In this document: positions 33,805-54,378 of the stretch, piece by piece
How the letters are laid out: each line of letters opens with the position of its first letter
Numbering within the stretch: the first letter of the stretch is position 1
DNA from: an uncultured Gemmatimonadaceae bacterium
Lineage (GTDB): Bacteria; Gemmatimonadota; Gemmatimonadetes; Gemmatimonadales; Gemmatimonadaceae
Reading direction: 5' to 3'
DNA: 64,000 nt
Assembly (NCBI GenBank): GCA_963829055.1
Contig: CAWHHI010000004.1
Location: 832,001 to 896,000 of the forward strand
Made by a program: the position numbers and the translations under genes
The notes under the pieces: generated by a model
Databases searched by the model: none
Told to the model about the DNA's origin: nothing
The model's input: only the letters and a program-made list of their open reading frames with translations

Positions 33805-33856
33805 TCGAGCTCGCACTACCGATCCTTCGGAGAAAACTGAATGCGTAAGACTGAAC

Positions 33857-35054: not shown

Positions 35055-36738
35055 GTGAAGCAACCGGTCATCCTCACCGACAGCGACGACCCGTCCATTC
35101 GCGACGCGGCCGGCTTTCTTGATTCCTGGGACGTCGTCGTTCGCCGCGATCGAGAGCTTGCGGCGGCGGTGGAGGAAGTCGCTGACGTTCGCGTCATCAT
35201 CACGACGACGGACAACCCGAACGCCCTGCGCGACATTGTCGACCGCGCCCGCGCCCGGTCGCTCGCCGTGATCGTCGGATGCGCGAGCGACATGGCGCGT
35301 CGCCGAGCGATCGAGCTTCGCGTCGACGAGTGGTTCCTGGTTCCGGCGACGGGTGAAGAGATCGCGGGCCGCGTCCGCTCGGCGCTCTCCCGCGTGGCTC
35401 CGGCCGCAGCGGCGCTCGCGGACCGGGTCGAGCGCTTCGAGTACGAGCAGAATGCTCTACGACCATCTCACCGGCCTCCCTACGCTGCCGGTGATGATCG
35501 AACGGTCGCGCGCGCTCATCAAGGAGCGCGGCGAGATGATCGTGCTGTACTTCAACTTCGTGCGCTACTCGAAGATCGAGGAGATCTACGGGTGGGAAAA
35601 GCTCGACGCGGTGCTGGAGACGACGGCGCAGGCGGTCCGGGAATTTCTGGACGCGAGCGTCCTCCGCTCGTCTCGGGTGATGGTGAGCTTCACCAACGAC
35701 GACGACTTCGTCTTTTTCCACGTGCCGGCACCTAACGTTGCCGCCGTGACGGATGCGGAGATCACGGATCTCGTACCGAAGCTCCAGGAATTCGTCGGCG
35801 GACGCATCGAGACGACGCATGGCGAGGAGATCGCGTCGCTGTTCGAGATCTACGTCGGCCGGGCGCACGTGTATTACAACCCGAAGATCCGGCTGCAACG
35901 GCTGATCTATCGGGGTATTCGTGAGGCGGCGAACGCGGCCAAGGGGATCGAGCAGCGCGAGCGCGGACGCCGCGTGGACGATCTCAAACGGAGCCTGCGC
36001 GAACGCGCGGTCTACGTCGATCTGCATCCGATCCTGCTCGCGGAATCGCGTCAGGTCTACGGGTATGAGGCGCTCGCGCGCGGGACGCTCCGCACGCTGC
36101 GGAGCCCGGAGATCATGTTCGACGTCGCCGCCGAGGCGGATCTCTTGTGGGAGCTCGGTCGGCTGTGTCGGAGCCGCGCCATCGAGGCGATGAAGACGCG
36201 CCTAACGCGCGGTGAGTTCCTGTTCCTGAACGTCGATCCGCACGACTTCGCCGACCCGCAGTTCAGCCAGCTCGACCAGGAAGTGCCGGACCCGAGCCGT
36301 GTCGTCATCGAGATCACGGAGCGGACGGCGATCAAGGACTATCCGAAGTTCCGCGAGCGTCTGAGCGCCCTGCGCGAACGCGGCTACCGCTTCGCGGTCG
36401 ACGACGCCGGGAGTGGCTACGCCGGTCTCGGCTCGATCGCGAACCTCGAGCCCGATTTCATCAAGCTCGACATCTCGCTGATCAACTGCATCGACACGAA
36501 CTTCATCAAGCAGAATCTCGTGGAGACGATGGTGCGGTTCGCGAACGATCAGGGCGCGAAGGTGATCGCCGAGGGTGTGGAGCGCGCGGAGGAGTACGAG
36601 ACGGTGAAGCAGCTTGGCGTGCACATGGTCCAGGGGTTCTTCCTGCATCGTCCGTCGGAGAACGCGGTGGCGCGCACGGGAGAGCACGCCGCGAGCCGCC
36701 CGTCGGATACCATCGCGCACGTCGGCGGAAAGACCTGA
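35055..36738 (+). CDS. EAL-domain c-di-GMP phosphodiesterase with degenerate REC-like and GGDEF-like domains; frameshift near 35451
   Basis: Joined reading EQMLYDHLTGLP; EAL motifs YEALARG, FLNVDP, IEITE, DDAGSGYAGL, IKLD, AEGVE, QGF. Confidence 0.85.
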
Positions 36739-37123: not shown

Positions 37124-38419
37124 CTAACGCGATGTCCCGCCAAGAAGCTCGGAGACGATCTCCCACGACCGCTCCGCCGCGCCCAGTCCGCCCTCGACGA
37201 GATCGCGCGCCGCGCGTCCTGTCTCCGCCCGCAGGCCATCATCGGAGAGCCAATCCGTCAACCGTGTCTCGATCGCCGCTGCGCTGTCGGCGGTCGCGCC
37301 ACCACCCGCGGTGATGAGCAGCTCCGCGTCGCGACTGTTCGTGAAGCGCGGCCCGAACAACACCGGCACGCCGAACGCGGCCGGTTCGAGCACGGAGTGT
37401 AGTCCCGCCGAGTGAAAGCCGCCGCCAACGTAGGCGACGCTCGCGAGTGCATACAGATCCCCGAGCACGCCGACGCGATCGACGATCACGACGTCCGCGA
37501 CAGCCGCGTCAGGCGCCCCGAGACGCGCGCCGCGCAATCCCGCATCGATCGCCCATCGTTCGACCGGTCGCACGTGCGCGTCCGTCGGCTCGTGAGGCGC
37601 GATGATGAGTCGAGCGTCCGGGAGTGCCGCCATGACCCGGGCCCACGCCGCCAGGAGCGGTCGCTCGTCCGCTGGCCACGTCGACCCCGCAACGAGCGTC
37701 GGGCGGTCAGACGCGAGTGCGGCGACAAATCCCGTCGCGCGATCGACCGCACGTACACGTGCCCACACCTGGTCGTACCGTGTGTCGCCGGTAACGGTGA
37801 TGCGATCGTGCCGCACGCCCAGCTCGACGAGCCGCTCGGCATCGCGCGCGTCGATCGCACCAACAACGTTCAGCCGGGCATACGCGTCGGTCAGCAATCG
37901 CGCCGCGACACCGCGCCGCCGCGATGAGCCTTCAGCCAGCGTTGCACTGACGAGCCCCAGGGCGACGCCGCGCTCGGCCGCGACGCGGGCGAGGTTCGGC
38001 CACACATCGAGTTTGCTGAACACCAGTGCACGTGGCTGGAGCGCGTTCAACGCGGATCGCGCCTCACCCTCGGTGTCGAACGGCAGGTAGTCCGCGAAGT
38101 CGACGTCCAGGCCGCGCGCGAACGCCGCCGCGCTCGGCGAGAAGAACGTATAGGCCAGCTGCGCGTCGGGTCGCTTCGCGCGCGCGATCTGAAGCACGGG
38201 GCGCGCCTGCAATCCTTCGCCAACGGAGGGCGCGTGCATCCACAGCAGGGGTCGCGTGCCGTCGCGATGGGTCGCGCCCCAGTGTGCATAACGCGTACGA
38301 ATGTCGCGACGGCCGCGCAGGGCCCGCAGAATCTTTGCGTCGCCGTTCGGTGCGAGTGCCGCGAGCATGCGCGCGAGCTGTCCTGCCGCGTCGTAGCCGA
38401 TCCGGAGTACGGCGTCCAC
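37124..38419 (-). CDS. waaA: 3-deoxy-D-manno-octulosonic acid (Kdo) transferase (start approximate)
   Basis: WMHAPSVGE, YLPFD, GDTRYD, AGSTWPADE, IAPHE, YVGGGF...HSVLEPA. Confidence 0.9.
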   Translation of the reverse strand: MDAVLRIGYDAAGQLARMLAALAPNGDAKILRALRGRRDIRTRYAHWGATHRDGTRPLLWMHAPSVGEGLQARPVLQIARAKRPDAQLAYTFFSPSAAAFARGLDVDFADYLPFDTEGEARSALNALQPRALVFSKLDVWPNLARVAAERGVALGLVSATLAEGSSRRRGVAARLLTDAYARLNVVGAIDARDAERLVELGVRHDRITVTGDTRYDQVWARVRAVDRATGFVAALASDRPTLVAGSTWPADERPLLAAWARVMAALPDARLIIAPHEPTDAHVRPVERWAIDAGLRGARLGAPDAAVADVVIVDRVGVLGDLYALASVAYVGGGFHSAGLHSVLEPAAFGVPVLFGPRFTNSRDAELLITAGGGATADSAAAIETRLTDWLSDDGLRAETGRAARDLVEGGLGAAERSWEIVSELLGGTSR

Positions 38420-38448
38420 GGCGCGCAGCGGTCGCGAGCCGAGTGCGG

Positions 38449-39196
38449 CTACTTCGTGCCGGCGGTGGCCAGCGCGGCGTCGAGGACCTTCCTCAGGTCC
38501 GCCGGCATCTGTACGCCTTCGAGGAGTTGGTTGCCGATGAAGAACGACGGCGTCGCGCGGACACCGGCCCGCGTGGCTTTCTCGTGATCGGCCTCGATCA
38601 GCGGCAGCATCTTGTGCGACGACACGCACGATCGGAGTGCCGTGGGCTCGGCACCGACGGACAGGCGCGAGCGAATCGAGGATGGGACCGGGTTTGGGAA
38701 GCGGCACCCATTTATCCTGCGCCGCGAACAGCGCGTCGTGCATCTCCCAGAACTTGTTCTGCGCGGCGGCGCACATGGCGTACTCGGCCGCTGGAATCGC
38801 GTTCTGATGACTACCGATCGGGTAGTTGATGAACGCAAGACGAACTTTGCCGTTGTCGATGTACTCGCGGCGGATCGTCATGTCCGCCGAGTCGTGCCAC
38901 ATCTTACAATACGGGCATTGGAAGTCGCTGGAGAGAATCATCCAGACTTTCGCGTTCGGATTCCCTCGAATGCGTGCGCTGTCCGCGCGAGCGACCAACG
39001 GGTCGACCGACGAGCCGGTAGTCGATGGTGTCGAAGCCGATGACGCATCGCTCGCGGGCGCCTGCGCGCTCGGCGACGCGGCCGCTGCAGGTGTAGCGCT
39101 CTCGACAGTGGCAGGAGCGGATTTCGCGGTGGCGTCACCAGCACCTTTGCAGGCGGAGAGGAGAGCGATCGCGATGATGCGAAGGGAGATTGTCAT
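38449..39196 (-). CDS. DsbA-family thioredoxin lipoprotein; frameshift near 38665
   Basis: Lipobox LSAC; SDFQCPYC; KFWEMHDALF; C-terminal GVRATPSFFI in the frame of ORF 38449..38838. Confidence 0.85.
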
Positions 39197-39513
39197 CGAT
39201 GAGTGTCGGAACGAGTCGGCGCGTCTCGGAAGGCCACGAACGGCTGATCGACGCGGCGACTGCAGAGGCGCCGTAAAGATATCGCCAGTGGGACCTAAGT
39301 CGCTACGTGTGCGTTTCATCACCGATCTGTACAGGGCATACCTCTTGCACCCCGGCTCGCTGGAACTCGCGCGCGCGATGCCGGCGATGCGAGGTGGAAA
39401 ACGACGAAGCACTCGATAGTATCGGTGCTGTCGTGGTGAGTGGTCGCTCGCGGTTCGTGCTGGCGCGCGCTTCGCGAACTATGCCGGTTCGCTTCACTAG
39501 CTCGGGAGGGCTC

Positions 39514-40761
39514 ATGCGCAAACCGCCGCGGGGCGTAACGTGGTCGTTGGTCGCGTGCGCGGCTGTCGCCATGGCGTCCGTAGCCAGTGCGCAGCAAGTG
39601 GAGCCGTATGGCCAGACGATGCAATTCGGTGCCGGCTACATCAACACGCCTGCCGCGTGGGTCTCGCGACGGTCCGCGGATTCGTGGCTCACGCTTTCCG
39701 CGAAGGACTTGCCCTCGTCCGGCGACGGCAGTCAGGGCAGTCTCGCGACTCGTCTCAACTCCAATCTCGCACTCGATACGCATTGGGGCGGACGCGTCTC
39801 GATCGGAGCTTCGCTCTATAGCCAGAACCCGGAGTGGGGCATCTTCGGACAGGCGCTCGTGCTGCGCGACGGCGACCTGGGTTTTCTTCCGGATTTCGCC
39901 ATCGGTGCGCGGAACATCGGCCGCTTCAAGCACGAGGATCGCTTCCTGATCGGGCACGACGTCGTGCTCGACAGCACCGGCAAGTACGACGACGTCGTCG
40001 TCGCGCGGTATGCGGGCTTCAAGACGGCGCCCACGCTGTATGCGGTGCTGACGAAGAACGTGCCGCTCGCCGGGTACTCGGAGCGAGGCCAGAAGTCGAT
40101 GTCGTTCAGTCTTGGTTACGGCAACGGCCTGTTTCGGGACGATGGCGGTCTCGGCGACCAGTACAACAACAGCGGTACGATCGCCCGCGGCCTGTTCCTC
40201 GGCAGCCGACTCGTTATGCACCCGTGGGAGGGCGGCGCCCTGACCGTGCTCGCGGAGAACGATGGCTGGGACTGGAACGCCGGCGTCGTGGCCGAGTGGC
40301 GCGGCGTGACGTTCGGGTTGTACGGGACGGAGCTCGAGGCCGGAGGTCGGAACGGCGAGAGCGAAGGCTTCAACGTGTACAACTACACGAAGGTCAACTT
40401 TGCTATCGGCTACAGCGGCAATGTTCGCGACATCTCGCACGGCGTCGTTCTCCGCTCGCACATCACCGAGATGACGCGCGAATCGCAGCGCCTCCGCTAC
40501 GAGATCTCGTCACGAGAACGTCGCATCCAGAAGCTCGAGGTCGAACTCGCCAGCGCGCGTCAGGGCGAGCTCGCCCAGCTCGAGAGGCGCCGGCAGCAGT
40601 TGGAGATCGACCTGCAGGCGGAGCGAGAGGCCATCAAGCGCGCGAACGACCGCCTGAAAGAGCTGGAGCAGAGCGGTGTACGCCCCCCGGCGACGAAGCC
40701 TCCTCCGAATCCACCGGCCAATCCGCCGACGACGCAACCGCCGGCGGGGAGGCAACCGTGA
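39514..40761 (+). CDS. Secreted putative beta-barrel protein with C-terminal coiled coil and Pro-rich tail (paralog 1)
   Basis: GGGAGG RBS, signal peptide ASA-QQ, aromatic beta-strands, E/R/L-rich coiled coil, PPPNPP tail. Confidence 0.7.
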   Translation: MRKPPRGVTWSLVACAAVAMASVASAQQVEPYGQTMQFGAGYINTPAAWVSRRSADSWLTLSAKDLPSSGDGSQGSLATRLNSNLALDTHWGGRVSIGASLYSQNPEWGIFGQALVLRDGDLGFLPDFAIGARNIGRFKHEDRFLIGHDVVLDSTGKYDDVVVARYAGFKTAPTLYAVLTKNVPLAGYSERGQKSMSFSLGYGNGLFRDDGGLGDQYNNSGTIARGLFLGSRLVMHPWEGGALTVLAENDGWDWNAGVVAEWRGVTFGLYGTELEAGGRNGESEGFNVYNYTKVNFAIGYSGNVRDISHGVVLRSHITEMTRESQRLRYEISSRERRIQKLEVELASARQGELAQLERRRQQLEIDLQAEREAIKRANDRLKELEQSGVRPPATKPPPNPPANPPTTQPPAGRQP

Positions 40762-41961
40762 CGATCTTCCGTTCGCTCCGTCACCTGGCCATCGCGGCCG
40801 CGGCGTTAGGTATCGTGCCTGGCGCCGTGCGCGCGCAGCAGGACTTCCCGCAGACGCTCTACTGGGGCTCCGGGCTGATCGATATCCCCGTGGCGTGGGT
40901 GTCGCCGCTCACTGGCGACTTCTCGTTCGGCTATTCGGGTAAGGGGTTCCGCGTGGACCCGGTCGCGACGAAGCTCAATTACGACGACCGTCTCAATTCG
41001 CAGCTGACGCTCTCGACGTCGCTGCTCGGCCGGCTCGAAGGCGGGGTCGCGTTCTTTTCGAGCAACCCGGAGTACGGCTTCTTCGTGCGCGGCCTACTCG
41101 TTAGGCAGGAAGACCTCGAAGCACGCGGCGGAGCGCTCCGGTGGTTCCCCGCGGTGGCGGTCGGCATGCGAAACCTCGGCAAGTACGAACACATCGATCG
41201 CTTCGGCGTCGGGTACGCGCTACTGCCGCCGACGGCGGACAGCCCGGACGCGCGTCACGAGCCGGACTCCCTGCATCTGAACTTCGACACCGCGCCGACG
41301 TTGTACGCCGTGGCCACGAAGAGCCTGACGCTGAACCAGATCCGCGACACCTGGCCGAACCTCGGGGTGAGCCTCACGCTGGGCTTCGGCAACGGCTTGT
41401 TCCGTGACGACGGCGATCTCGGCGCGTCCTACGCGAAGAACGCGACAGGCGGGCTGTTCTACGGTGCGACCGTGGACCTTCCGGTGTCGCCGGACCTCCG
41501 CTTCACCCTGCTGGCCGAGAACAACGCGTGGGACTTCAACGTTGGTGCGACTGCCGCGTACCGCGGGCTCCACGCTGGCCTGTACGTCACCGAGTTAGGC
41601 GCCGGGTCGAGCTCTTCGTCGACTCCGTTCTACAACTACCGAAAAGTCGCGTTCAGCCTCGGTTGGCAGAGCAACATCCTCGCGCTGCTGCACGGGGATT
41701 TCTTGCAGAAACGAGCGGACCTCCTGGCGCGTGAGCGCGAGCAGCTCCTCAAGGACATCAGCGAGCGCCAACGCCGCGTGGCGGCACTGCAGCTCGAGCT
41801 CGATCGGTACGAGGCACAGAATCTGCTCGAGCTGGAGCAGCGCCGCGCGGCTGCCGAGCTACAGCTGCGAACGGAGCGGGATGCACTGCGCCGTCTCGAG
41901 GACCGGCTGAAGCGCGTGGAGCAGCAACGCGGCACGATCGCCGCCGCCTCCACAACCGTAG
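40758..41961 (+). CDS. Secreted putative beta-barrel protein with C-terminal coiled coil (paralog 2); probable frameshift near 41940
   Basis: GTGA overlap. Shares G.I..P.AWVS, S.NPE.G.F, DRF..G, TAPTLYAV.TK, LG.GNGLFRDDG.LG and LAEN..WD.N with paralog 1. A one-base shift gives PPPPQP-stop at 41961. Confidence 0.7.
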
Positions 41962-42003
41962 CCGATGTCGATGCATCGATTCTCAAACGGCGGGAAGCCT
42001 CCC

Positions 42004-42702
42004 ATGATCAGACGCGTACTGTTCGCCGTAGCGGCGGCGGCGCTCGCACTGCCGAGCGCCGCAACGCGCACTGCGCTCGCGCAGACGGACGCGACGTACA
42101 AAGCGAAGCGCGAGCAGCTCTCGAAGGAGCTCGCGGAGACGGAGAAGGCGCTCGCGGATGCGAAGGGGCAGCGCGTGCAGCTCCAGGCACGGCTCGAGAG
42201 TCTCATCGCGCAGGCCATGCAGGAGCGCGCGCAGACGCTGCTGCTGAGCAACGAGCAGACGGCGCTCCAGCAACTCGACGCGCTGTTGGCGACGTCGCAG
42301 ACGAATCTGCAGGCGCAGCGTGATCGCTTCGTGACGCTGTCGGATGCCGTCGGCGCGCGCACCGGGGCCACACTCGTCGTGCTGCTTCGCGCCGATTCGT
42401 CGCAGGCGCAGACGGTGCAGTCCGCGATCGTCACGATCGACAGCGTTGCCGCGCCGCCGCGCACGTATTCCGCGCCGGCGTCAGGCGCGCTGTCGCGCGG
42501 CGCCGTGGATGAGCTCTTCCGCTCGTTCGTCGTTCCCACGGATCACTCGATCGCCGTCCAGATCACCGTCGATGGCCGGACGCTCACCGGCACGACGAGA
42601 GTTCCGGCGGCACGTCAGGCTGTCACGTACGTGCAATTCGCGGTGAGAAATGGTCAGGTGACCTCCTCCACATGGACGGGTCGCGGAACCGGGCCATTCT
42701 GA
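42004..42702 (+). CDS. Secreted coiled-coil protein with C-terminal beta-rich domain
   Basis: Signal peptide ALA-Q, long coiled coil, beta-rich tail; TGATG overlap with the next gene. Confidence 0.7.
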   Translation: MIRRVLFAVAAAALALPSAATRTALAQTDATYKAKREQLSKELAETEKALADAKGQRVQLQARLESLIAQAMQERAQTLLLSNEQTALQQLDALLATSQTNLQAQRDRFVTLSDAVGARTGATLVVLLRADSSQAQTVQSAIVTIDSVAAPPRTYSAPASGALSRGAVDELFRSFVVPTDHSIAVQITVDGRTLTGTTRVPAARQAVTYVQFAVRNGQVTSSTWTGRGTGPF

Positions 42703-44975
42703 TGCGTGCCGTGCCGTTCACACTGCGTGTGACGTTAGGCGCGGTCCTTGGCGCTTCGGCCGCGCATCTCACCGCACCCGTCGTGAGTGCGCAGTCGACG
42801 CGCCGGGATACCGCGCGCACGGTGATCATCGACTCCGTGACCAAGACGTATGGAGATCCGCAGGCCGGTGTCCCGCGCGCCACGATGAGTGGCGCACCGG
42901 ATCTGGCGCGAACGATCGACGCGGAAGTCCGGGTCGCGATGTTCGAGCTTGCGTCGGGCGAGGAGTTGCCCGCGCTCGCCCGTCTGGAACGCCTCTCGGC
43001 GCTCGTCCGCCAGGACTCGTCGGGTGCCGCGGGTCCGGAGCGCGCGGCGCTCCACTTCCTGCTGGCGCAGAGCTACTACCGACTCGGGATGATGGCGCCG
43101 TTCCGACGCGAGGCCGAAGCGTCGCTCGCGGCTGCACCCGCGCGTTACGCAACGCTGCTTCGCCCGCAACTCGTCATCGAGGCGTATCGCACCGGCGACT
43201 ACGCCCGGGCGGCAACGCTCGCGCGCGACCTTCCTGCGGCAGAACAGAGTGGGCTGGGCGCGCTCGTCGCGGGACTGGCGGCGTATCAGTCGGGCGATGT
43301 GAACGGCGCGCGAGCTTCGTTCCAGCGCGCTGCCAGTAGCGGTGGTCAGTTCGCCACCTATGCGAAGTACATGGACGCCATCGCGCAGTTGCGCGCCGAT
43401 ACAGCGCACGCTGGCAACGGCGTCGCGTCGCTCGAGTCGGTCGCCAACAGCGCAACCGGACCATTCGCCGACCAGGTGCGGCTCACCGCCGCCCAGGTCG
43501 CGTACGAAGGCGAGCACTACGCGGATGCCGTACGCCTGGCCTCAGCCGTGGGTGACAGTAGTCAGGTCGCTGCGCCGGCACTGCTGACGCGCGCCTGGGC
43601 GCTCTACAAGCTCGAACGCGTGGAGGACGCACAGCGCGCCTTCAGCGAATTCGCTACGCGGTACGCGAGCCGGCCGGAGCGCGACGAAGCACAGCTCATG
43701 GCGGCGCAGGCACAGCTGGAGCTGGGCCGGTCCAGTGAGGCCGAGGCGACATTTCAGCGCGTCGCGGATTCATCGGCGGTGGACGTGACCGCGTTACAGG
43801 CGCAGACCAACGCCGCCATCGCCGACCTCTCGCGCGCGCTCGTCACGGATCGCGCGGCTGACCTGCTCGTCGTTGGTGATCCGAGCAACGCCAAGGCGCT
43901 CGTGTTGCGGGATTCGTCGGATGCGCTGGCGGTACTTGCGGCCGTTACTGGATCCGGCAATCCGACCTCTGTCGTCACGAGTCAGCCGACCGTCGTGGCC
44001 GCGTCCGCGGCCGCGCGACTCGACTCGATTGCCGGTCGTGCGACGCCAGCCGTTAGGCGCGTATTGTTCGCGCCGGTCTCGGCGACGCGGCAGCCGGGCG
44101 AGCTCGCCGTGCGGTCGCAGAATCTCGCGAGCGCGGATGCGGCGGTTGCCGTCGCCCGTCAGCAGCTCGCCGCCCAGTTGGAAGCGCAGCAGCGCGAGCT
44201 CGCGCTGCTGTCGCAGCTCTCAGGATCCCTCGCCGCCGACAGCATGGTCATCGGAGGGCTGGCTGCCCAGCATCAGGTTGTCGTGGACTCGATGGCCCGA
44301 CTCGATCAGGTGCTGTCAGCCGCCGAAGCGCGTCTCCGTCAACTGTTCGGCCGCGAAGTGGAGGCGACGCGAATACAGGCGGCGGAGAACGCTCGTACTG
44401 CGGACAGCCTGCGGACGGCGCTCGCCGCCGGCGCGGACCCCGAGGGTAAGGCGGCGATCGAGGCCGAAGTCGCGACCGCGGCGGCGTACGCGCGCATTGC
44501 CGACATGGCAGCGAGTGGACTGGACAAGGCCATTGCGCATCACCCCGCGTTCGTCCTGCGGGATTCGTTGCGCGCCCACGATGCGCACGCGAAGGTGCTG
44601 CTCGTGGAGTTGCAGGGTTCCTACACCGGCTCGCGTCGGGAGATCGATGCCGCAGTCGCTGCATTGCGCAGCGGTGACGGTCCGGCGGCTCGGGCGGCGC
44701 GTCAGGCTTTGACCGACGCCGAGGCTCGACGCACGACGGTCGAAAACGAGGCGATCGCGGCAGTGACGGCGGAGCTTTCCGCACGCGCCACCGAGATGAT
44801 CACAGGGCTTCAGCGCAACGGCGAGGCGGCGCAGTTCGGCGTCGCGAGCGCCGCCTTCTTCCGCGCCATTGACGGGACACGCGCCGTGGGTGGCGCCGGG
44901 TCGGGTGGTCGAGCGGGCACACCTGCCGATGCGTCGCCAGCGTCGCGCAACAGGGCTCCCGAGCGGAGGCGTTAG
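42702..44975 (+). CDS. Secreted TPR + coiled-coil protein (GltC-like position)
   Basis: Signal peptide; TPR-like repeats (FLLAQSYYRLG, ALLTRAWALYKLE, AQLMAAQAQLELG); long helical C-terminus. Confidence 0.75.
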   Translation: MRAVPFTLRVTLGAVLGASAAHLTAPVVSAQSTRRDTARTVIIDSVTKTYGDPQAGVPRATMSGAPDLARTIDAEVRVAMFELASGEELPALARLERLSALVRQDSSGAAGPERAALHFLLAQSYYRLGMMAPFRREAEASLAAAPARYATLLRPQLVIEAYRTGDYARAATLARDLPAAEQSGLGALVAGLAAYQSGDVNGARASFQRAASSGGQFATYAKYMDAIAQLRADTAHAGNGVASLESVANSATGPFADQVRLTAAQVAYEGEHYADAVRLASAVGDSSQVAAPALLTRAWALYKLERVEDAQRAFSEFATRYASRPERDEAQLMAAQAQLELGRSSEAEATFQRVADSSAVDVTALQAQTNAAIADLSRALVTDRAADLLVVGDPSNAKALVLRDSSDALAVLAAVTGSGNPTSVVTSQPTVVAASAAARLDSIAGRATPAVRRVLFAPVSATRQPGELAVRSQNLASADAAVAVARQQLAAQLEAQQRELALLSQLSGSLAADSMVIGGLAAQHQVVVDSMARLDQVLSAAEARLRQLFGREVEATRIQAAENARTADSLRTALAAGADPEGKAAIEAEVATAAAYARIADMAASGLDKAIAHHPAFVLRDSLRAHDAHAKVLLVELQGSYTGSRREIDAAVAALRSGDGPAARAARQALTDAEARRTTVENEAIAAVTAELSARATEMITGLQRNGEAAQFGVASAAFFRAIDGTRAVGGAGSGGRAGTPADASPASRNRAPERRR

Positions 44976-47900
44976 GTGACCATGATGCGATCGACCATGC
45001 GATCGGCGCGTCGCGTCGCTGCCGTCGCCTTCGGAGTCACCGCCATTGCGGCGGCTGCCAGTGCGCAGCAGCAGGACACCGCACGCACGCGTCGCCCGGC
45101 AACGACGAATGTGGCGTCCAGTGGCGAGGTCGCGCGGTCCGCGTACAACGTCCCGGTGGGCGACACGGCGATCTCGCGACTCGAGCGCTTCGTAACGCAG
45201 TATCCGCAGAGCACGCTCCGCCCGCGTGCGCTCCTACAGCTCGGCGAGCTGCTCGTTCGTCGAGCGGACGAGCGCTTTGCCGCCAGTCAGCGGTCGGGCA
45301 CGTCCGCGGACACGACGTCGCGACCCGACTACAGCGCCGCGATCGCTCGCTACGACGAGCTGCTCACGGCGTATCCGAACTTCGACCGCCGCGATGCTGT
45401 CGCGTACACGCTGGGTACATTGTACGCGCAGCAGCAGCGTTATGCAGACGCCGTCCGCGCATTCGAATCGGTTGCGAACGACAGTTCGTCATTCCGGAGC
45501 GAAGCGTTGTTCCGGCTTGGCGATGCTTACTTCGAACTGGCTGCCGCCGAGCGGGGCGAGCCACGTCGCGCCGGATTCGCGCGTGCCGCGGCGGCGTATG
45601 AGCGAGCCACGGCGACCGCCCCGCGCGATGGTGACATTCTACTTCCTCTCGCTCTACAAGCTCGGCTGGTCGTATTACAACCAGGCGACGCAGACGTCAC
45701 AGGCCGAGTACACGAAGGCGGTCGAAGTGTTCGGCCGGCTCATCGACGCGTACGACAAGCTGAACCCCGAGCAGCAAGCGCGACTCGGGCTCCGCGGCGA
45801 GGCCGTCGAGTACATGGCGGTGGCGTTCACGCAGGTCGGCGGGGCGGAGGCGGCGAATCGCTACTTCACGGCGCACTCGACGACGGCGTATCGACTGCCA
45901 GTCATGCGGCGCGTCGCGTACAGCCTGCAAGAGCAGGGCGATTTCACGCGCGCCGTCGACGCGTATCAGGCGCTGATCAAACAGGCGCCCAATGACACGA
46001 CAGCGGTCATCGCGCAGCGAGAAATCATCGATATCTATCAGAACCGCATGTTGGAGCCGGAGCGCGCCCAGCAGGCGCGCCTCGATCTCGTGACGCGATT
46101 CGGTCCCGACTCGCCGTGGATGAAGGCGAACGCGGCGAATACCGCGGTCGTCGATAGCGCCGCGGCGATTCGTGAGGTCGTGCTCCGGCAGGCAGCACAG
46201 TATGCGCTCGCGCAAGCGCAGCAGGGCAATGACCGCCAGAAGTACACGGCCGCCGCTGCACTGTATGAACGCTACCTGCGCGAGTTCGCGAACTCCGACA
46301 GCGCTCAGGCGGCGAACGCGCTCCTCGCGGAAGCCCTGTTCAACACTGGCGACTACGTGCGTGCCGGTACCGAGTACTCGCGTGCGGCATACGCGTACCC
46401 GAAGGACTCGACCGGCGCGTTCGCCGAGCAGGCGGGCAGAAACGCGATCGTCGCATTCGACTCCGCGCTCGCGAAGAATCCACGCGACGTCACGGCGCAG
46501 GACTCTCTGTTCGCGACGGTTGATCGGTTCGTCGCGCGGTTCCCGAACAGTCCGGTCGCGCGGACGGCACTCATGCAGAAAGGCCGTCGCGCCTCAGAGG
46601 CGCAGCGATGGGACGTCATGGCGGCGACATTCCGGACGTACGCGGAACGCTACCCAACCGACTCCCTGACGCCTAACGCGCAGAAGCTCGTCGGCGATGC
46701 GCTGTATCGCTCGGGCAAGTACGCCGAGGCGCAGGCCCAGTGGGTGCTCGCCCAGAATGCGGCGCGCCAGCGTGGGCGCTCGGCGCTCGTCGACTCCATC
46801 GGGTCCGTCCGGAGTGCGGCGGCGATGTCGTTCGCCGACACGCTGATTCGCGGCGGTAACTACGACCGCGCCGCGGAAGACGTCTATGTCGCGTTCGCCG
46901 ACAGCAACGCCGGATCCGAGAAAGCCGCTGACGCCCTGCGCAACGCGATCGAGACGTACATGCTCGCCGACAGTACTGCGCGTCAGCGTGGCGACTCGGC
47001 AGCATCCGTGAAAGCGCGAGACCGCGCGATCGCGCTCTCCGAGCGGCTCGTGAAGGAGTATCCGCGCTACCAGTACCGTGCGCAGTACCAGAGTCTCCGC
47101 GCGCGACTGCTTGCACAGGCGGGCAAGCGGGACGAAGCGGCTGCCGCACTGCAGGCGGTGATCGCGGAGAATCCTTCCTGGTCGGGCCGCCCGGATGCGA
47201 TGGTCCAGCTCGCGCTGTCTCTGGACTCGCTCGGGCGAAAACGTGAGGCGGCCGCAGCGTACGAGGCGTTCGCGACGGCGTACCCCAAAGATCGCCGTGC
47301 CGCGGACGCGCAGTACAACGCGGCCGTGACCTTCCTGGAGGTGCCCGACACGGCGGCTGCCGCTCGCGCCTACGGGTCGTTCGCCTCGCGGTTCCCGTCG
47401 GACACCCGTGCGGCGCAAGCGCGCAGCACCCGCCTGGCCATGTTGAGAGCAAGTGGCGACTCCGCGAGTGCTGACCGCGAGCTGGCCTCGTTATGCAGCG
47501 CCGCTCCAAACGCGAATACCCCAGCCGATCTGCGCGCGAGTTGTGCTGCACGCGCGGGCGAGCAGGAGTTCCGTGCTGGCGCGGCAATGTTTCCGCAGTA
47601 CCAGGCCGTGCGGCTCGTGATTCCGTCGAAGGCACAGCTCACGGCGGCGGGCGTGAAGCGCGCGTCGACCACGAAGCAGAAGTTGCTCGGTCAGATGACC
47701 GACCATTTCACGAAGGCGATCAAGAGCGGCGCGCCGGTTCCACTCGCGGCGTCGACGTTCTACCTCGGCCTCGCGCAGTGGGAGTACGGCAACTTCGTGA
47801 AGAACGTCCGGCTTCCGGGTGGCCTGACGGCTGCCGAGCGCGAGTCGGCAACGGCGGGATCGGAGCGTCAGGCAACGCAGTACTACGATGCCGCCCGCAA

Positions 47901-48027
47901 CACGTGGCAAGCGCTGCTCGAGACGGCCGAGCGCCAGAAGATCGACAACGTGTGGGTGACACGCGCACGCGATGCGCTCGCTGGCAACGTCCCCGCGACG
48001 CCACCGCCGCCGGGAGGCGTGCAATGA
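44976..48027 (+). CDS. Large secreted TPR protein (GltD/AgmU-like); frameshift near 45637
   Basis: ALLQLGEL, YTLGTLY, ALFRLGDAYF, then DIYFLSLYKLGWSYYN after removing one T; many TPRs; about 1000 aa. Confidence 0.8.
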
Positions 48028-48464
48028 CGAACAGACCACAGCATGGCGTCGGACGCGTCATTCTAACGAGCGCGATGACGGGGCTCGCCGTCACGACGCT
48101 GGCGCTGGCATCGCTCGTCACGGTGAGCTCGGCGGAGGCGCAAAAACCGACGCCGCCACGTCCGGCGCCGCGTACGCAGACGCCACGGCGTCAGGAGACG
48201 ATCGAGATTCGCGGGCAGGTACCCACGCCGCAGGTCGTGACCGTACGTCCGCGAGAGACGCCGGCGTACAGCCGTCGAGTGCTGGTGCCGGCATTCTTCG
48301 ATCGCGACTTCTGGCCGTCGATTCTGCCCGCGCTCCAGATCCTGTCGGTGCCGGCGACGTTACGCACGGATTCGGCAACACGCGCGACGCCTGACTCCGC
48401 TTCGCGTGCTCAGCCCGCTGCGCGCCCGCCGTCGGGCACGCCTCCTGCTTCCCTGCGTCCATGA
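48024..48464 (+). CDS. Small secreted protein, GltF-like
   Basis: ATGA overlap; signal peptide AEA-Q; core ETIEIRGQVPTPQVVTVRPR...RDFWPSIL. Confidence 0.6.
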   Translation: MTNRPQHGVGRVILTSAMTGLAVTTLALASLVTVSSAEAQKPTPPRPAPRTQTPRRQETIEIRGQVPTPQVVTVRPRETPAYSRRVLVPAFFDRDFWPSILPALQILSVPATLRTDSATRATPDSASRAQPAARPPSGTPPASLRP

Positions 48465-48566
48465 AGTCGCTCGCGTCGCTGATCAAGCGATGCCTCGTCG
48501 CTCGCGCTTGACTGGCGATCCGTTGTTATGCGCTCCTGAACCCACGCTCCTCGGAGATTGCTGAAG

Positions 48567-49208
48567 ATGAACACCGTGCTCGAGTGGTACCGCAACGGCG
48601 GTCCCGTCATGAACGCGATCCTGCTCGTCGCGGTCGTTGGCCTCGCCGTGTTCATTGAGCGCTTCTACACCATCGTCATTCGCTCGAAGATCAATGGCCG
48701 AGCGTTCATCGAAAAAATCATTCAGCTGGTGCGCGCCGGAAAAGCGGAGGATGCGATCAAGCTCTGCGCGCAGTCCAATGCCGCCCTGCCCGATATGGGC
48801 CTGCTCATCCTGCGCAGCCGCAGCCGCGACGAGTCGGACCTGCAGAACGTCGCTGATGCGGCGGCGCTCGCCGTGATCCCGCGACTCACGCGCCGGCTCC
48901 AATACCTGCCCATGCTCGCCAACGTCGCCACGCTCCTCGGGCTACTCGGCACGATCTTCGGTTTGCGCGAGGCCTTCCAGTCCGTCGCGCTCGCGGCCGC
49001 GGCCGAACGATCGGAGCGCCTGGCATCAGGCATCGCGATCGCGCTCAACGCAACGGGCTTCGGGCTCCTCACGGCGGTGCCGCTGTCTGTCGCGCACGCC
49101 TACCTCGTCAGCCAGGCCGAGACGATCATCGAGCAGATCGATGAGTTCTCGGTGCGGGTGATCAACGCACTCATTGACCGGCCCGACGTGCGGCTCGGTC
49201 ATCGTTAG
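48567..49208 (+). CDS. MotA/TolQ/ExbB proton channel protein (AglR-like)
   Basis: GGPVM...IERF; ANVATLLGLLGTIFGL; LASGIAIALNATGFGLLTAVP. Confidence 0.92.
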   Translation: MNTVLEWYRNGGPVMNAILLVAVVGLAVFIERFYTIVIRSKINGRAFIEKIIQLVRAGKAEDAIKLCAQSNAALPDMGLLILRSRSRDESDLQNVADAAALAVIPRLTRRLQYLPMLANVATLLGLLGTIFGLREAFQSVALAAAAERSERLASGIAIALNATGFGLLTAVPLSVAHAYLVSQAETIIEQIDEFSVRVINALIDRPDVRLGHR

Positions 49209-49217
49209 GAGAACCGG

Positions 49218-49775
49218 GTGGCAACAGTCTACCTGCGGTCGAAGCAGCGCCGCATGGAGCGCCAGTCGTTGACCGACGCAGGGAACCTCAACCTCGTTCC
49301 CCTCGTCGACATTCTGACGTCGGTCGTGTTCTTCTCACTGCTCACGTACCAGGGTGCATCGCTCGCGGCGCTCACGTCGTACGATCTTTCGCTTCCGCCG
49401 GTGGTCATCACGGCGGAGCAGGCGTCCGCTTCGGCGCAGAATCGCAATGCGCTGAACCTGCTGCTCGCGGTGCGGGTGGAGCACAACAAGCTGCTGGTCG
49501 AGCACACGGGCGAGGGTGGGTTCCGCAAGGAGATCAGGGGTCTCCAGGGCGTGGCGCTCGACACGTTGCAGTCCGTCATGTCGGACATCCGCCGCCGCTA
49601 TCCGCAGAATGCGGACGTGCTGGTCGTGCCGGCGGACGACGTCCCGTACGATGACCTGATCCACGTGCTCGAACGCCTCCGGATCGCCTCGTACTCTGGC
49701 ATCTCGCTCGGCAATCGAACGCGGGCGACCCAGGTGTCCACGGGCGACGTGAAGCCCATGGGTACGCCGCGATGA
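49218..49775 (+). CDS. ExbD/TolR family protein (AglQ/AglS-like)
   Basis: TM with the essential Asp (LNLVPLVDILTSVVFF); periplasmic VVPADDVPYDDLIHVL. Confidence 0.85.
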   Translation: MATVYLRSKQRRMERQSLTDAGNLNLVPLVDILTSVVFFSLLTYQGASLAALTSYDLSLPPVVITAEQASASAQNRNALNLLLAVRVEHNKLLVEHTGEGGFRKEIRGLQGVALDTLQSVMSDIRRRYPQNADVLVVPADDVPYDDLIHVLERLRIASYSGISLGNRTRATQVSTGDVKPMGTPR

Positions 49776-50371
49776 CGTCGCAGATCACGCCTCCCGGATC
49801 GGAACAGCCGGTCAGGGCAATGGGCGGCGTTCACAATCGCGCGCGCGCCGCTCGGCTCGCACGCCGGGCGGCGCAGTTCAACAAATTCCGCCTGATTCAG
49901 CTGAATCTCGTGCCGCTCGTCGACACGTTCGTGTCGGTCGTGTTCTTCACGCTCGTCACGGCGACCGTCGGCGAGCTCGCGCCCGTCGTGAGCGGAGTCA
50001 ACCTGCCGGACTCTCGCGTCGGGGCCACCGCGCTGTCGCAGCTCACGTTAGGCATCGGGCCTCAGGTCACGCTCGGTGGACGGCCCGTCATGGCGACCCG
50101 ATCGATGCCGCGCAGGCGAAGTCCACCGATCCCGCGCAGCCGTTGCTGATCCCGCCGCTGTACGCGGCGCTGCGAGCCAAGGCCGACTCCATTCCGCACG
50201 CTGCGGTCGACGCCGCAGAATCAGTCCATCGACACGCCGCTCGCCATTCAGGCGGACCGTACCATGCGGTACGATCTGCTCTCTCGCGTTATGCAGACCG
50301 CGCGGCTCGCGGGCTTCCGCAATCTGACGCTGCAGGTGAACCACGTCGCTGACGTGGTGAGGCCGAGCTGA
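49772..50371 (+). CDS. Second ExbD/TolR family protein (AglQ/AglS-like); two frameshifts (~50098 and ~50193)
   Basis: LNLVPLVDTFVSVVFF; LLIPPLYAAL; IQADRTMRYDLLSRVMQTARLAGF, read across three frames. Confidence 0.8.
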
Positions 50372-50372
50372 G

Positions 50373-51388
50373 ATGAGCGGGCCATCCGACCCGGACGACG
50401 CCGCCGGTGCGATCGCCTTCCGTCTCGGACACGCGCCGCGACGCGGTGCTCACGCGTTCGCTCCGCTACGAGATCGCCGGCGACGAAGGTCGGGCGCTGC
50501 TGGGGTCCTACACGTTCGCGTTCGCGCTCGGGATCGCGTGGCTCCTCATCGTGTATTTCGGACCCAAGACGCTGCCGATGCAACTACTCGCGCGCGACGA
50601 GCAGCCCATTGCCGTGACGTTCGACGCGCTCGAGCCGTTGCCCGGGGGCGGTGCCCCCGGTGAAGAAGGCGAAGCGATTCGAACACCCGCGCCGAGCCGG
50701 AACGCCGGGGCTGGATCGCGACCGACGACCGCGAGGGCCGGCGCCATCGCCGCTGCATTCGGTAGCGCGAACGGCACGGGAACGGGTGGGATGGTTGGCG
50801 ATGTGTCGAACGTTCTCAGAAACGTCGATGTCTCCTCTGGCGCCGGCGGCACGGGTGCCGGCGACGCTGCCACGGGCGGCGGTGCCACCGGCGGCAAGGT
50901 TGTCCTCGGAAGCGGCGAGGGTGGCCAGGGCTCGCGGACTCCCGGACGAGGCAACATCGGTGGCACGACGGGCATCGGAGGCGCTGCGGGCGGCATCGGT
51001 GGCGTTGGGCCCGGCGGCGGGACGGTCTCACGCGCTCCCGTACGGATCTCGCCGCCGCGCCCGATCGACGCGCCTGCCGTGAGAGGCGTGCAACGCGACG
51101 TCGGAGAGCTCGGCACGTTCGTCCGCGGCCGCGAGTCGCAGCTTGCGCTTCTGCTACAACGAGTACGGGCTGAAGGTGAATCCGTCGCTCGCCGGTTCGG
51201 TGTCGGCGTCGATCGCCCTGACGCCCGCGGGCGACGTGAGCGGCGTCGACATCACGAATCGGACGTGGTCGGGCGCGGGCGCGAGCGAGACGGAACGTTG
51301 CATTGCCGAGAAGATCCGCGGCTGGCGCTTCCCGGCATCCGAGGCGGGCGGCGGCACCTACGGGTTCTCGTTCAGCTTCACGCGTTAG
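50373..51388 (+). CDS. TonB-like membrane protein with AgmX/PglI C-terminal domain (GltG-like); frameshifts (~50388 and ~51143)
   Basis: Single TM, Gly-rich linker, C-terminal QLRFCYNEYGLKVNPSLAGSV...ERCIAEKIRGWRFP with paired Cys. Confidence 0.82.
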
Positions 51389-51471: not shown

Positions 51472-52326
51472 GTGCCTCGAACTCCGATCGCCGTGCTCCA
51501 TCTCCTGATCGCGCTGCAGGCCCTGCAAGTCCCGCCGCCGCCGCGCGGCTACGGGACCAGCACCGCCGAGGTCGTGGTCGACGCGGCGAACGTGCTGTTG
51601 CCGGAGACGGTCGATCGCATCAACCGGATCGCCTTCGATGTGCACGCGAAGTCCGGTGGCGAGATGGCGGTGGTCACGCTCCCGGATATCGGCCTTCGTG
51701 CACCCGTTGATGTCGCGCTCGCGATCGGACGCGCGTGGGGCGTCGGCGCGAACGCGGCGATCGGCCAGAAGACGCGCAACGCCGGCGTCATCATCCTCGT
51801 GGTGCCGAAGGAGTCGAGCTCCAGCGGCCGGGGTGAGTGCTTCGTCACGACGGGGCAGGGCACTGAAGGCTTCATCACCGACGCCGAAGCGGCGTCAATG
51901 TGCCGCGAGGCGGTGCCGCTGTTTCAGCAGCGGCAGTACGGACCGGCGCTGGCGCTGCTCGCGGGACGAGTGGGCGAGCAGTTCGCTCAGGAATTCGGCT
52001 TCACGCTCGACTCATCGTCCGTGCCCGCGCAAGTGTTGCAGCCTGACGTGCAACCTCGGGGGCGGCGGAGTGGCGGCATCTCGCCGTTCGTGATCTTCGT
52101 GCTCTTCATCGTCGCCTACACGATTCTCAACTCGATGAGTCGGCGACGTCGCGGGTGTGGGGGCGGCGGCTGCATTCCGATTCCGATCGTATTCCCGACT
52201 GGCGGCGGCTACTCGCGCGGCGGCTGGGGCGGCGGTGGTTTCGGGGGCGGAGGCGGTGGTGGCGGATTTGGTGGGTTCGGCGGCGGAGGCGGCTTCAGTG
52301 GTGGCGGAGGCGGCTCGAGCTGGTGA
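51472..52326 (+). CDS. TPM-domain (YgcG-like) membrane protein
   Basis: VVDAANVL, EMAVVT, AWGVG, TGQGTEGFITD; Gly-rich tail FGGFGGGGGFSGGGGGSSW. Confidence 0.9.
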   Translation: MPRTPIAVLHLLIALQALQVPPPPRGYGTSTAEVVVDAANVLLPETVDRINRIAFDVHAKSGGEMAVVTLPDIGLRAPVDVALAIGRAWGVGANAAIGQKTRNAGVIILVVPKESSSSGRGECFVTTGQGTEGFITDAEAASMCREAVPLFQQRQYGPALALLAGRVGEQFAQEFGFTLDSSSVPAQVLQPDVQPRGRRSGGISPFVIFVLFIVAYTILNSMSRRRRGCGGGGCIPIPIVFPTGGGYSRGGWGGGGFGGGGGGGGFGGFGGGGGFSGGGGGSSW

Positions 52327-52359
52327 CGAGCCAACGGGATTTCACTCCGACGTGTGATA

Positions 52360-52386
52360 CCCGATTCCCGATTCCCGATTCCCGAT
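52360..52386 (+). repeat. Tandem heptamer (CCCGATT) x4 running into the next start codon
   Basis: CCCGATT CCCGATT CCCGATT CCCGATG seen directly. Confidence 0.75.
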
Positions 52387-53096
52387 GAAACTCGACGAGC
52401 TCGTCGATCAACTGAAAAAGGTGTACGGCGCGCAGCTGCGGGCGGTGGTGCTGTACGGCTCCGCCGCGGCGGGTGAGCACATCGCCAAGCGATCCGACTA
52501 TAACGTGCTCGTCATCGTCGACGAGCTCACGATGGATCACATGCGAGCCGGAGCCGCCGTGGCGCGCGCGTGGGCTGAGGACGGGAATCCCCCGCCACTG
52601 ACGCTCACCGCCGCCGAGTGGCGCGGCAGCTCCGACATCTTCCCGATGGAATACGCCGACATTCTGGAGCGCCATCGCGTGCTGTTCGGCGCGCCGCCGT
52701 TCGACGGAATCGCGGTCGACCGGCGCCACCTCCGACTGCAACTCGAGCACGAGGCGATGGGGAAGCTGCTCAAGCTGCGTCAGGGCGTGCTCGCCGGTGG
52801 CGGGGACGCCAAGGCGAACATCGAATTGCTCGCACAGAGTCTGAGCACGATCATGGTCATCTTCAGGGCGGTCGAACGCCTGCACGAGGCGGTGCCGCCC
52901 ACGGATTACGATCGCCTGAGTCGCGATGTCGCGAAGCGGGTCGGATTCGAGCCGGAGCCGTTCACCCGTGTGGTCCGACATGTGCGCGGGGAAGCGAAAA
53001 TTGGTCCCGGCTGATGTCTCGACGGTGCTGGCGGGGTATATCGACGGAATGCACAAACTCGTTGCCTACCTCGACCGCTACCAGCCAGGATCTTGA
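52385..53096 (+). CDS. Nucleotidyltransferase-fold protein; frameshift near 53006
   Basis: VLYGSAAAG...SDYNVLVIVD; DIFPMEYADI; LRLQLEHE; removing one C gives ...GYIDGMHKLVAYLDRYQPGS-stop. Confidence 0.8.
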
Positions 53097-53209
53097 TGCA
53101 GTGTTTTGATGCGGCTCAGGCGAGCACGAAGGGTGAGACGGGCTGTTCCGCCTTGGATGGAGGACGCGTTATGCGTGCTGATCGCGGTGGGAATCGCAGT
53201 GAGCGTGGT

Positions 53210-53770
53210 ATGCGGGCGATAACTCGCGTGGGCGGGCCGATCGTGGGTGTGGTGTGCCTGACGATGCTGGCCCTTGGATGTCCTGGCGAGCGACGTGACA
53301 AGCGCGCGGCCGATAGTGCGCGCGCGGCGGCGATCCCGGTCGACACGACGCCCATGGACCTGAGCAAGGTGGAAACCTCCCTCCCACCGTCGCTGCCCGA
53401 TACTTTCAAGGGGCCGGCGAAACCGGTGGCCCGGCGGTCTGCCAGCGAAGTTGTTCGCGAGCCACCCATTCCGCCGGCGCCGCCGGCGCTCATGGACGCC
53501 GTACAGCGCGAGGGAAGCTCTTCGCGCTTCTGCTATCAGGAGTTCGGCCAGAAGGTCGATCCAACGCTCAAGGGCGGCGTCGCCTTCGTGGTCTCGGTCG
53601 GCTCCGGAGGCATCACGAACGCCAGGATTGCGAGCGACAGTTGGTCGTCGAAGGCCGGGGCGGCGGTGAACCGCTGCCTGGATGACCGAGCCAGCTCGGC
53701 GTGGAAACTCGCCGCTGGTGCGGTCCCGGCGGGGAAGTACGTAGTGAGAATGACCTTCACCGGAAAATGA
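53210..53770 (+). CDS. Putative lipoprotein with AgmX/PglI-like C-terminal domain
   Basis: Lipobox-like LALGC, Pro-rich linker, RFCYQEFGQKVDPTLKGGV...VNRCL...W, similar to the C-terminus at 51143-51388. Confidence 0.7.
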   Translation: MRAITRVGGPIVGVVCLTMLALGCPGERRDKRAADSARAAAIPVDTTPMDLSKVETSLPPSLPDTFKGPAKPVARRSASEVVREPPIPPAPPALMDAVQREGSSSRFCYQEFGQKVDPTLKGGVAFVVSVGSGGITNARIASDSWSSKAGAAVNRCLDDRASSAWKLAAGAVPAGKYVVRMTFTGK

Positions 53771-53802
53771 CCGTGCACGATCCCACATCGAGGACTTCCG
53801 CA

Positions 53803-54378
53803 ATGCACCGATACACCCTGCCGTTTGCGCTGCTCCTCGTCAGTGGATGCGGGTACAACACGATTCAGAAGTACGACGAGACTGTGAACGCGGCGAAGAA
53901 CCAGATCGAAGTACAGCTGCAGCGTCGCGCCGATCTCATTCCGAACCTCGTCGCGACGGTGAAGGGATACGCGCAGCAGGAGCAGGACGTATTCGTTCAG
54001 GTCGCTCAGGCACGCGCCGGAGTGCTGGGCGCCGTGCAGAAGGGCGACCCGCGCGAAATGGCCAACGCGAACGATCAGCTCACGGGCGCGTTGGGCAGAC
54101 TGATGGTCGTGGCCGAGGCGTACCCGCAGCTCAAGTCGGACCAGAACTTCCTCAAGCTGCAGGACGAGCTCACCGGAACCGAGAACCGCATCGCGGTCGC
54201 GCGCACGGATTACAACGGTGCCGTCCAGACGTACAACACGTACATCCGGACGCTGCCGCAGTCGCTCACCGCGAAGGTGACTGGCGCAAAGCAGCGCGAG
54301 TATTTCGAGGTCACCACGCCGGGAGCGCGCACAGCGCCGTCCGTGGATTTCTCGAAGCCGGCGGCTAAGACGCCCTGA
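53803..54378 (+). CDS. lemA: LemA family protein
   Basis: GCGYN, LQRRADLIPNLVATVKGYA, EAYPQLKSDQNF, ELTGTENRIAVAR. Confidence 0.93.
   Translation: MHRYTLPFALLLVSGCGYNTIQKYDETVNAAKNQIEVQLQRRADLIPNLVATVKGYAQQEQDVFVQVAQARAGVLGAVQKGDPREMANANDQLTGALGRLMVVAEAYPQLKSDQNFLKLQDELTGTENRIAVARTDYNGAVQTYNTYIRTLPQSLTAKVTGAKQREYFEVTTPGARTAPSVDFSKPAAKTP

Follow-up and report, generated by a model that had tools for sequence, protein, structure and literature searches.

What is a proton-driven motor doing at the centre of a ten-gene operon of an uncultured Gemmatimonadaceae bacterium, and what does it move? The operon lies in the window, the whole 64,000-nucleotide stretch of contig CAWHHI010000004.1 (assembly GCA_963829055.1) that was analysed, and a preliminary description made from its letters alone had proposed a relative of the Myxococcus xanthus Agl-Glt gliding machine with an unusual secreted front end. 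The ten same-strand genes that it listed, mostly with overlapping or abutting start and stop codons, are all present at 39514–51388, and we designate them, in operon order, A, B, C, D, E, F, R, Q, S and G (Table 1). Pfam matches agree with the one ExbB/TolQ and two ExbD/TolR genes that had been called by inspection, with MotA_ExbB at 48567–49208 and ExbD in the genes at 49218 and 49772, and place tetratricopeptide repeats (TPR) in those at 42702 and 44976/45226. The operon very probably encodes an Agl-Glt-type force transducer powered by the proton motive force (PMF). As the output of this motor we tentatively favour surface motility, in lineages without flagella, because motor and flagella largely exclude each other and because the operon carries Myxococcus-like additions to the bare Agl-Glt core.

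The motor subunits were examined against models of canonical energizers. R scored only 60.7 bits against the TolQ model (cut-off 221) and 31.3 bits against the ExbB model (cut-off 206). In a 62-row tree it fell within a 54-row clade [Shimodaira–Hasegawa-like approximate likelihood-ratio test (SH-aLRT) 99] together with motors from Glt-type loci, apart from the TolQ and ExbB proteins of both Escherichia coli and its own genome and from the ExbB-TonB type. The rows of this tree were gathered by likeness to R, M. xanthus AglR is not among them and 9 of the 54 clade members come from loci with no detected Glt-type neighbour; the link from R to Glt thus runs via NCBIfam Glt models and metagenome loci, not via M. 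xanthus proteins. As the same genome also encodes, on another contig, a TonB-ExbB-ExbD locus and a full Tol-Pal locus, a canonical Ton or Tol identity was rejected on scores, clade and separate loci together. R is very conserved (68–96% identity) and the Thr and Gly residues of its transmembrane (TM) helices TM2 and TM3 are invariant (80/80), as is the TM Asp in the orthologues of the two ExbD genes (75/75 and 72/72).

To provide an outgroup, 80 metagenome loci, many of them on short contigs, were fetched around the more distant relatives of R, and profile matches among them were found for E-like (31), G-like (31), D-like (15) and C-like (14) genes. At one locus (L129) the motor's neighbours match the GltC, GltE and GltG models, all below cut-off. 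A protein search with the R alignment was filled by close relatives, and few named taxa (Latescibacterota, Myxococcales, Deltaproteobacteria) appear in the clusters of R relatives. The nearest sister system (L106–L108 and L152; R branch support 88) includes a gene resembling GltE, and the core motif of its F is close to that of the F described here; a related cluster has one member named Latescibacterota. A Vibrio alginolyticus plasmid (NZ_CP013487.1; L103) carries a highly diverged Agl-Glt-like layout near chaperone and Ig-like genes, consisting of a barrel, a large helical protein, two small proteins, a motor, two ExbD and a Pro-rich TM protein, with profile matches for the motor genes only.

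Because generic TPR matches had to be avoided, profiles were built from outgroup genes only. These genes were selected on their size and their place in the locus, and for the small-gene set a loose motif and visual inspection were used as well. The profiles were run against all 77,198 six-frame open reading frames (ORFs) of the genome, which is 86% complete. The GltD-position profile, taken from 18 outgroup loci, ranked E first, with E-values of 2e-85 and 2e-24 for the pieces in the window and 7e-118 for an intact orthologue, compared with 9e-12 for the next TPR protein. The GltC-position profile ranked D first by a modest margin (3e-12 versus 9e-7 for the next TPR protein), and two of its members match NF033756 below cut-off. 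The GltF-position profile placed F first, weakly (0.062); an outgroup GltF-type member (L175) matches CglF at 2e-4, and F itself, which gave no match to the CglF model NF033764, has as its conserved core a short hydrophobic-alternating strand, in position and motif as in GltF/CglF. In direct NCBIfam scans D, E and F gave no match to the GltC, GltD, GltE or GltF models, and the GltD model matched none of the proteins scanned. Judged by these sequence comparisons, D is the GltC counterpart and E is the GltD counterpart, and F is a candidate GltF-like gene with a weak, top-ranked profile match. These top ranks for profiles from other lineages, together with the R clade, bear out the Agl-Glt relationship proposed in the preliminary description, and neither of the two outcomes that it named as refuting was obtained. 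Luciano et al. list seven core genes (PMC3169522), and for all of these but GltE the operon has a counterpart, six in total. Elsewhere, GltC-like and GltD-like sequences are fused in one ORF of approximately 1450–1750 amino acids (L099, L100, L115, L112 and L121).

G comprises approximately 50 cytoplasmic residues, one TM helix, a Pro/Gly linker and a C-terminal domain of the two-Cys AgmX/PglI type, as had been proposed for this TonB-like protein. Its C-terminal piece scored 49.8 bits against the NCBIfam AgmX/PglI model NF033768 (cut-off 40), and an intact orthologue from a genome of the same genus scored 62.9 bits. The best whole-protein model was GltG (NF033760; E-value 1.6e-12), although the match falls far short of that model's cut-off. 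The system also reaches past the ten genes first described, to the downstream gene J, whose product is 170–190 amino acids long, with an invariant lipobox Cys and a domain of the G type. Strong matches to J were found in 52 of 151 family genomes, 51 of these with an intact motor, and J directly follows G at four loci (L099, L100, L200 and L201); J belongs to the motor system. Since predictions for M. xanthus have GltG and GltJ binding GltD from opposite sides by their C-terminal domains (PMC11761067), J is plausibly a minimal stand-in for GltJ. Distant J-like proteins (E-values 1e-19 to 1e-23) occur in four motor-less genomes (G351, G379, G402 and G250).

The front end begins with the paralogues A and B. 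The AF2 model of A (pLDDT 83) predicts 12 long strands followed by helices at residues 304–350 and 355–387, with the N-terminal segment inside or under the barrel. Its best folds, KdgM (Z 17.0), NalP (16.1) and FapF (15.9), are effectively tied, so that the fold points to no function. Profile–profile comparison linked the N-terminal part of A to the YjbH N-terminal barrel (probability 93.9, E-value 1.5e-7, 90 columns), and the Atlas lead was to the first barrel of YjbH/GfcD (0.91); A is modelled as one barrel per chain, not two as in YjbH/GfcD. Neither A nor B gave a PF06082 match above the Pfam cut-off or matched any NCBIfam gliding model, and PDB sequence searches with A and C returned coiled-coil noise only. 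The outgroup barrel profile ranked B first, weakly (E-value 0.038). A profile made from 10 outgroup lead genes matched C alone among the 77,198 ORFs (E-value 1.7e-5), the profile of C itself matches 14 of the 80 outgroup loci, and for C ESM Atlas returned Gemmatimonadota clusters only; by these profile matches C is a homologue of the gene that leads other cores, which are gammaproteobacterial-type by gene order. In four outgroup loci (L110, L112, L116 and L121, with profile matches for L112 and L121 only) the GltC-like gene is preceded by one gene for an exported protein that ends in a coiled coil, so the barrel-plus-coiled-coil design is common to other lineages as well and the front end is less unusual than was first thought; what marks the Gemmatimonadaceae version is the duplication of the barrel together with C. 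A/B are present in 49 of the 151 family genomes, 47 of these with R, and thus in 47 of 54 motor genomes. Both barrels have been lost at L050–L052, L054, L056 and L074, where dsbA lies directly upstream of C and C-D-E-F-R-Q-S-G are kept.

Gene order was compared in the best 80 of 102 R relatives, all Gemmatimonad and all metagenome-assembled. It is unchanged wherever covered (80/80 loci), and with no departure among so many loci the arrangement is not a matter of chance. Many of these loci are truncated by contig ends, and the genes were present as follows: R 80, Q 78, S 77, F 74, E 73, G 71, D 63, C 60, B 52 and A 47. In the assembly itself, four of the ten genes are frame-broken by extra bases at 41938, 45637, 50101 (two), 50192, 50406 and 51142/3, with a further one downstream at 52996. 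Each extra base is absent from short-read contigs in two or three of the four independent runs compared, and the operon genes of relatives are in frame. These data clearly show that the frame breaks are assembly errors and that the operon is intact, and the reading of the broken genes as pseudogenes was rejected on the same grounds. In addition, 26 of 30 bins are covered in part by a single RNA run, but its library may contain DNA and expression is not claimed.

How the motor is distributed bears most directly on its function. Within a 301-genome phylum sample an R orthologue was found in 15 of 70 Gemmatimonadaceae genomes, in addition to the window's own, and in none of the other families searched; five weak matches in other families were rejected as the other operon genes are absent, four of them being ExbB-ExbD-TonB loci. 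Flagella were compared in one sample of 151 family genomes, in which R matched in 59. Once five degenerate orphans, at whose loci the other operon genes are missing, are set aside, 54 intact motors remain. Flagellin was found in 55 genomes and FlhA in the same 55, and motor and flagella occur together in 4 of 151 where approximately 20 would be expected (Fisher 7e-9, with kinship ignored). On a single-gene RpoB tree of 121 of the 151 genomes (the other 30 had no RpoB match or were left out, and the unpublished genome G013, counted in the tally, is not on it and is the sole basis of no claim), dependent evolution was preferred to independent evolution [likelihood ratio (LR) 16.1, p 0.003], 2 of 20,000 independent simulations were as extreme as the observed link, and the two traits need at least 16 and 21 state changes. 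With the largest motor clade collapsed p was 0.033, and with two flagellated clades collapsed too it was 0.046; likelihood tests of correlated evolution tend to overstate. PilT is present in 150 of the 151 genomes, so motor genomes are not simply gene-poor. This near-exclusion hints at unrecognized surface movement in an abundant soil group.

The five orphan R genes (L195, L196, L197, L198 and L199, in genomes G391, G339, G330, G367 and G387) have open frames and directly precede TPM(-NTase-LemA) genes, the other operon genes being gone. Their TM2–TM3 region is 31–47% identical to that of R, compared with 88% in an intact system, and divergence is less in the cytoplasmic part and the C-terminal tail; many 50% clusters resemble them. 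These genes may be decaying slowly, or they may encode an ExbB that no longer works as a motor and has taken on another role.

The window's genome gave no flagellin or FlhA match, at 86% completeness, yet it carries clustered chemotaxis genes, an MglA-like gene among them, as well as an mglB-mglA-like pair, which would fit motility. The preliminary description was right that no MglA gene is visible in the window; the mglB-mglA-like genes lie on contig C16. On this contig, at 833700–849900, the chemotaxis cluster (CheA, B, C, D, R and W-like, the names being judged from translations) with its MglA-like GTPase also has roadblock proteins, a DnaA-like ATPase and TPR proteins. The Myxococcus-like additions to the bare core are the outer-membrane barrel pair (47/54 motor genomes) and the second GltG-type domain (51/54).

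Combining these observations with the M. xanthus machine, we propose a chain from the inner membrane to the surface that would run R/Q/S, G, E with F and J, D with C, and A/B, with homology to support its members and contacts that are conjectural. An R pentamer around a Q/S heterodimer, homologous to the Agl motor and with the stoichiometry of the AglRQS model (PMC11761067), would conduct protons. By analogy with AglR–GltG, G may couple to R by its TM helix and span the periplasm by its Pro/Gly linker, so that its C-terminal domain could grip the TPR scaffold E and the β-strand of F, the lipoprotein J supplying a second G-type domain as GltJ does. D, C and the helical tails of A/B, whose barrel fold is predicted, might then tie the scaffold to the outer membrane. 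Finally, the A/B pair may bind or present a surface adhesin or polymer, as GltA/B do, and the force of the motor would become traction.

Several results weigh against motility. GltE has no operon counterpart by the outgroup GltE-position profile in the 77,198 ORFs of this 86%-complete genome, where the best match, to a TPR gene of generic type within the chemotaxis cluster, reaches 55 bits against a cut-off of 225. G lacks an FHA domain (the genome's FHA matches are on contig C12), and the locus has no GltI-, CglB- or cytoplasmic GltJ-like module, whereas in M. xanthus the cytoplasmic motifs of GltJ bind MglA and AglZ (PMC11135422). None of the comparisons run, with NCBIfam gliding models and by fold, linked A and B to GltA/B, and six loci and at least three genera have the motor without these barrels. 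Luciano et al. considered the core alone unlikely to drive gliding (PMC3169522), and our literature search found no paper on gliding Gemmatimonadota. Of the 151 genomes, 44–46 have neither motor nor flagella and four have both; the independent-pairs test leans towards exclusion (3.3 opposite versus 1.0 same) without reaching significance (median p 0.5–0.6). Near-universal pili also count against it, and habitat could drive both the motor and the flagellum pattern.

In a rival reading, as in Nfs transport, the motor would drag exported polysaccharide or coat material around the cell, building or anchoring a capsule or a desiccation-resistant coat, flagella having been lost from these soil lineages for ecological reasons. 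The Agl-Nfs machine does such transport without needing MreB (PMC3858216), which fits the missing cytoplasmic modules, and the relatives of A/B, the YjbH/GfcD N-terminal barrels, belong to proteins of group 4 capsule operons; near-identical DNA, moreover, comes mostly from soil and rhizosphere runs. However, A/B match this N-barrel, the FapF-like first barrel, and not the C-barrel that is proposed to pass the polymer (PMC9603273; PMC11494523), and no wzx, wzy or OPX genes were seen beside the operon within the window, its upstream neighbours being dsbA- and kdtA-like. We consider this explanation rather unlikely, if a serious one.

Less probable still, and in our judgement distinctly improbable, is a third TonB-like energizer, in which G (and J) would pull a TonB-box-like strand in F and open a plug in A/B, so that a protein (adhesin or amyloid) is exported or a solute taken up, with no processive movement. 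The TonB-C-like domain that ends G, the hydrophobic-alternating strand at the core of F and a model of A that fits the polypeptide exporter FapF as well as it does porins for small solutes (KdgM, NanC) are all consistent with such a device, but TonB-ExbBD and Tol-Pal are already in the genome, some lineages have the motor and do without the barrels, the loci hold no conserved substrate gene and exclusion with flagella would not be predicted. A general Tol-like aid to envelope maintenance or division, in which common descent alone would produce the flagellar pattern, is very unlikely: the TPR parts do resemble CpoB/BamD repeats, R is very conserved and the independent pairs are not significant, but R was not found in 92 of the 151 family genomes or in the other families of the phylum sampled, Tol-Pal is separately present and the motor–flagellum correlation survives the tree-based tests.

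Surface motility, to return to the output that we favour, has to be judged against the systems already known. The closest is the Agl-Glt core, which Luciano et al. described in 2011 as a group of unknown function (group B: aglRQS, gltC, gltD, gltE and gltG; PMC3169522), and with which the operon shares its core genes in the usual order, the lead gene C and, as in loci such as L164, a G without FHA. It differs in having no GltE and in adding the GltF-like F, two barrels and the lipoprotein J. Gemmatimonadota lie outside the main text of that paper, in which Gemmatimonas has no occurrence. Like the M. xanthus machine, the operon has two different Asp-bearing motor subunits, counterparts of GltG, GltD and GltC, a candidate counterpart of GltF, an outer-membrane barrel pair and a second TonB-C-like domain (PMC11761067). 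Unlike it, its barrels are predicted to be 12-stranded and YjbH-N-like with helical tails, with no link to GltA/B/H in the comparisons run, J is a lipoprotein without the cytoplasmic ZnR/GYF domains of GltJ, and the locus has no GltE, GltI, GltK, CglB or FHA (genome-wide, GltI and AglZ were not searched). With the Agl-Nfs spore-coat machine it would share a Glt-paralogous transducer on the same motor type, which for Nfs works without MreB (PMC3858216), whereas the operon has motor genes of its own and no linked Exo-type export locus was seen. A/B share with the YjbH/GfcD N-barrel (PF06082) and FapF a 12-stranded barrel, and differ as stand-alone single barrels, below the Pfam cut-off, with a C-terminal helical hairpin. 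R/Q/S belong to the same motor superfamily as TonB-ExbBD and Tol-Pal, but to a separate clade and separate loci. We know of no sporulation in Gemmatimonadota.

The kind of system is therefore one already known, and what appears to be new is the operon variant, its phylum and the near-exclusion with flagella; we found no description of the Gemmatimonadota variant or of the flagellar pattern in the literature, although subscription journals and supplements, in particular Fig. S1 of PMC3169522, could hold one. It is conceivable, though we advance it with still more reserve than motility itself, that about one-third of Gemmatimonadaceae lineages are unrecognized gliders, with a stripped Agl-Glt motor, an independently recruited YjbH-N-type barrel pair, no FHA/GltI/GltJ link to the cytoskeleton and many exchanges between gliding and flagella. 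To our knowledge, no Agl-Glt motility outside the myxobacteria and Bdellovibrio is known. This would be the first, and it would bring a core of unknown function near to a motility engine. What the core does outside myxobacteria has been an open question since 2011, and the Gemmatimonadaceae variant is compact, held in one operon, and gives a statistical clue to function, in the near-exclusion with flagella and the repeated changes of state, as well as natural deletion variants (no barrels, fused GltC-D, an orphan degenerate motor subunit). Motility, if true, would change the view of how an abundant soil phylum moves and of how little gliding needs; if not, the operon would still be the most testable non-myxobacterial member.

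Table 1. Genes of the operon and its conserved neighbours, in positions of the window
Feature	Position	Strand	Description
A	39514..40761	+	Predicted outer-membrane 12-stranded β-barrel (YjbH/GfcD N-barrel-like) with C-terminal helical hairpin
B	40758..41961	+	Paralogue of A, 37% identity; true stop 41959–41961 once the extra base at 41938 is discounted
C	41965..42702	+	Exported coiled-coil protein with putative β-rich C-terminal domain; signal peptide judged by eye
D	42702..44975	+	Exported TPR plus helical protein; GltC-position homologue
E	44976..48027	+	Exported TPR protein of ~1000 amino acids; GltD-position homologue; assembly indel at 45637
F	48024..48464	+	Small exported protein; candidate GltF/CglF-position homologue; conserved core, consensus IEIRGQVPTPQVVTVRPRE
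R	48567..49208	+	AglR-like MotA/TolQ/ExbB motor subunit
Q	49218..49775	+	First ExbD/TolR-like subunit; TM Asp
S	49772..50371	+	Second ExbD/TolR-like subunit; TM Asp; assembly indels at 50101 and 50192
G	50373..51388	+	GltG-like transducer; indels at 50406 and 51142
J	53213..53770	+	Predicted lipoprotein, invariant lipobox Cys, second AgmX/PglI-like domain; beyond the span first described
TPM, nucleotidyltransferase-like and LemA genes	51472..54378	+	Conserved neighbours of the operon

The TPM, nucleotidyltransferase-like and LemA genes are probably a separate unit, since some loci lack them between G and J and loci that have lost the operon retain them. Upstream of the operon, the dsbA- and kdtA-like genes seem fused at 37124–39412 by an apparent frame error and are separate in relatives, and a response-regulator/GGDEF/EAL gene at 35055–36738 is split by another. 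Approximately 5 kb upstream, at 33725–34564, lies a gene for a small outer-membrane β-barrel with a weak OMP_b-brl match.

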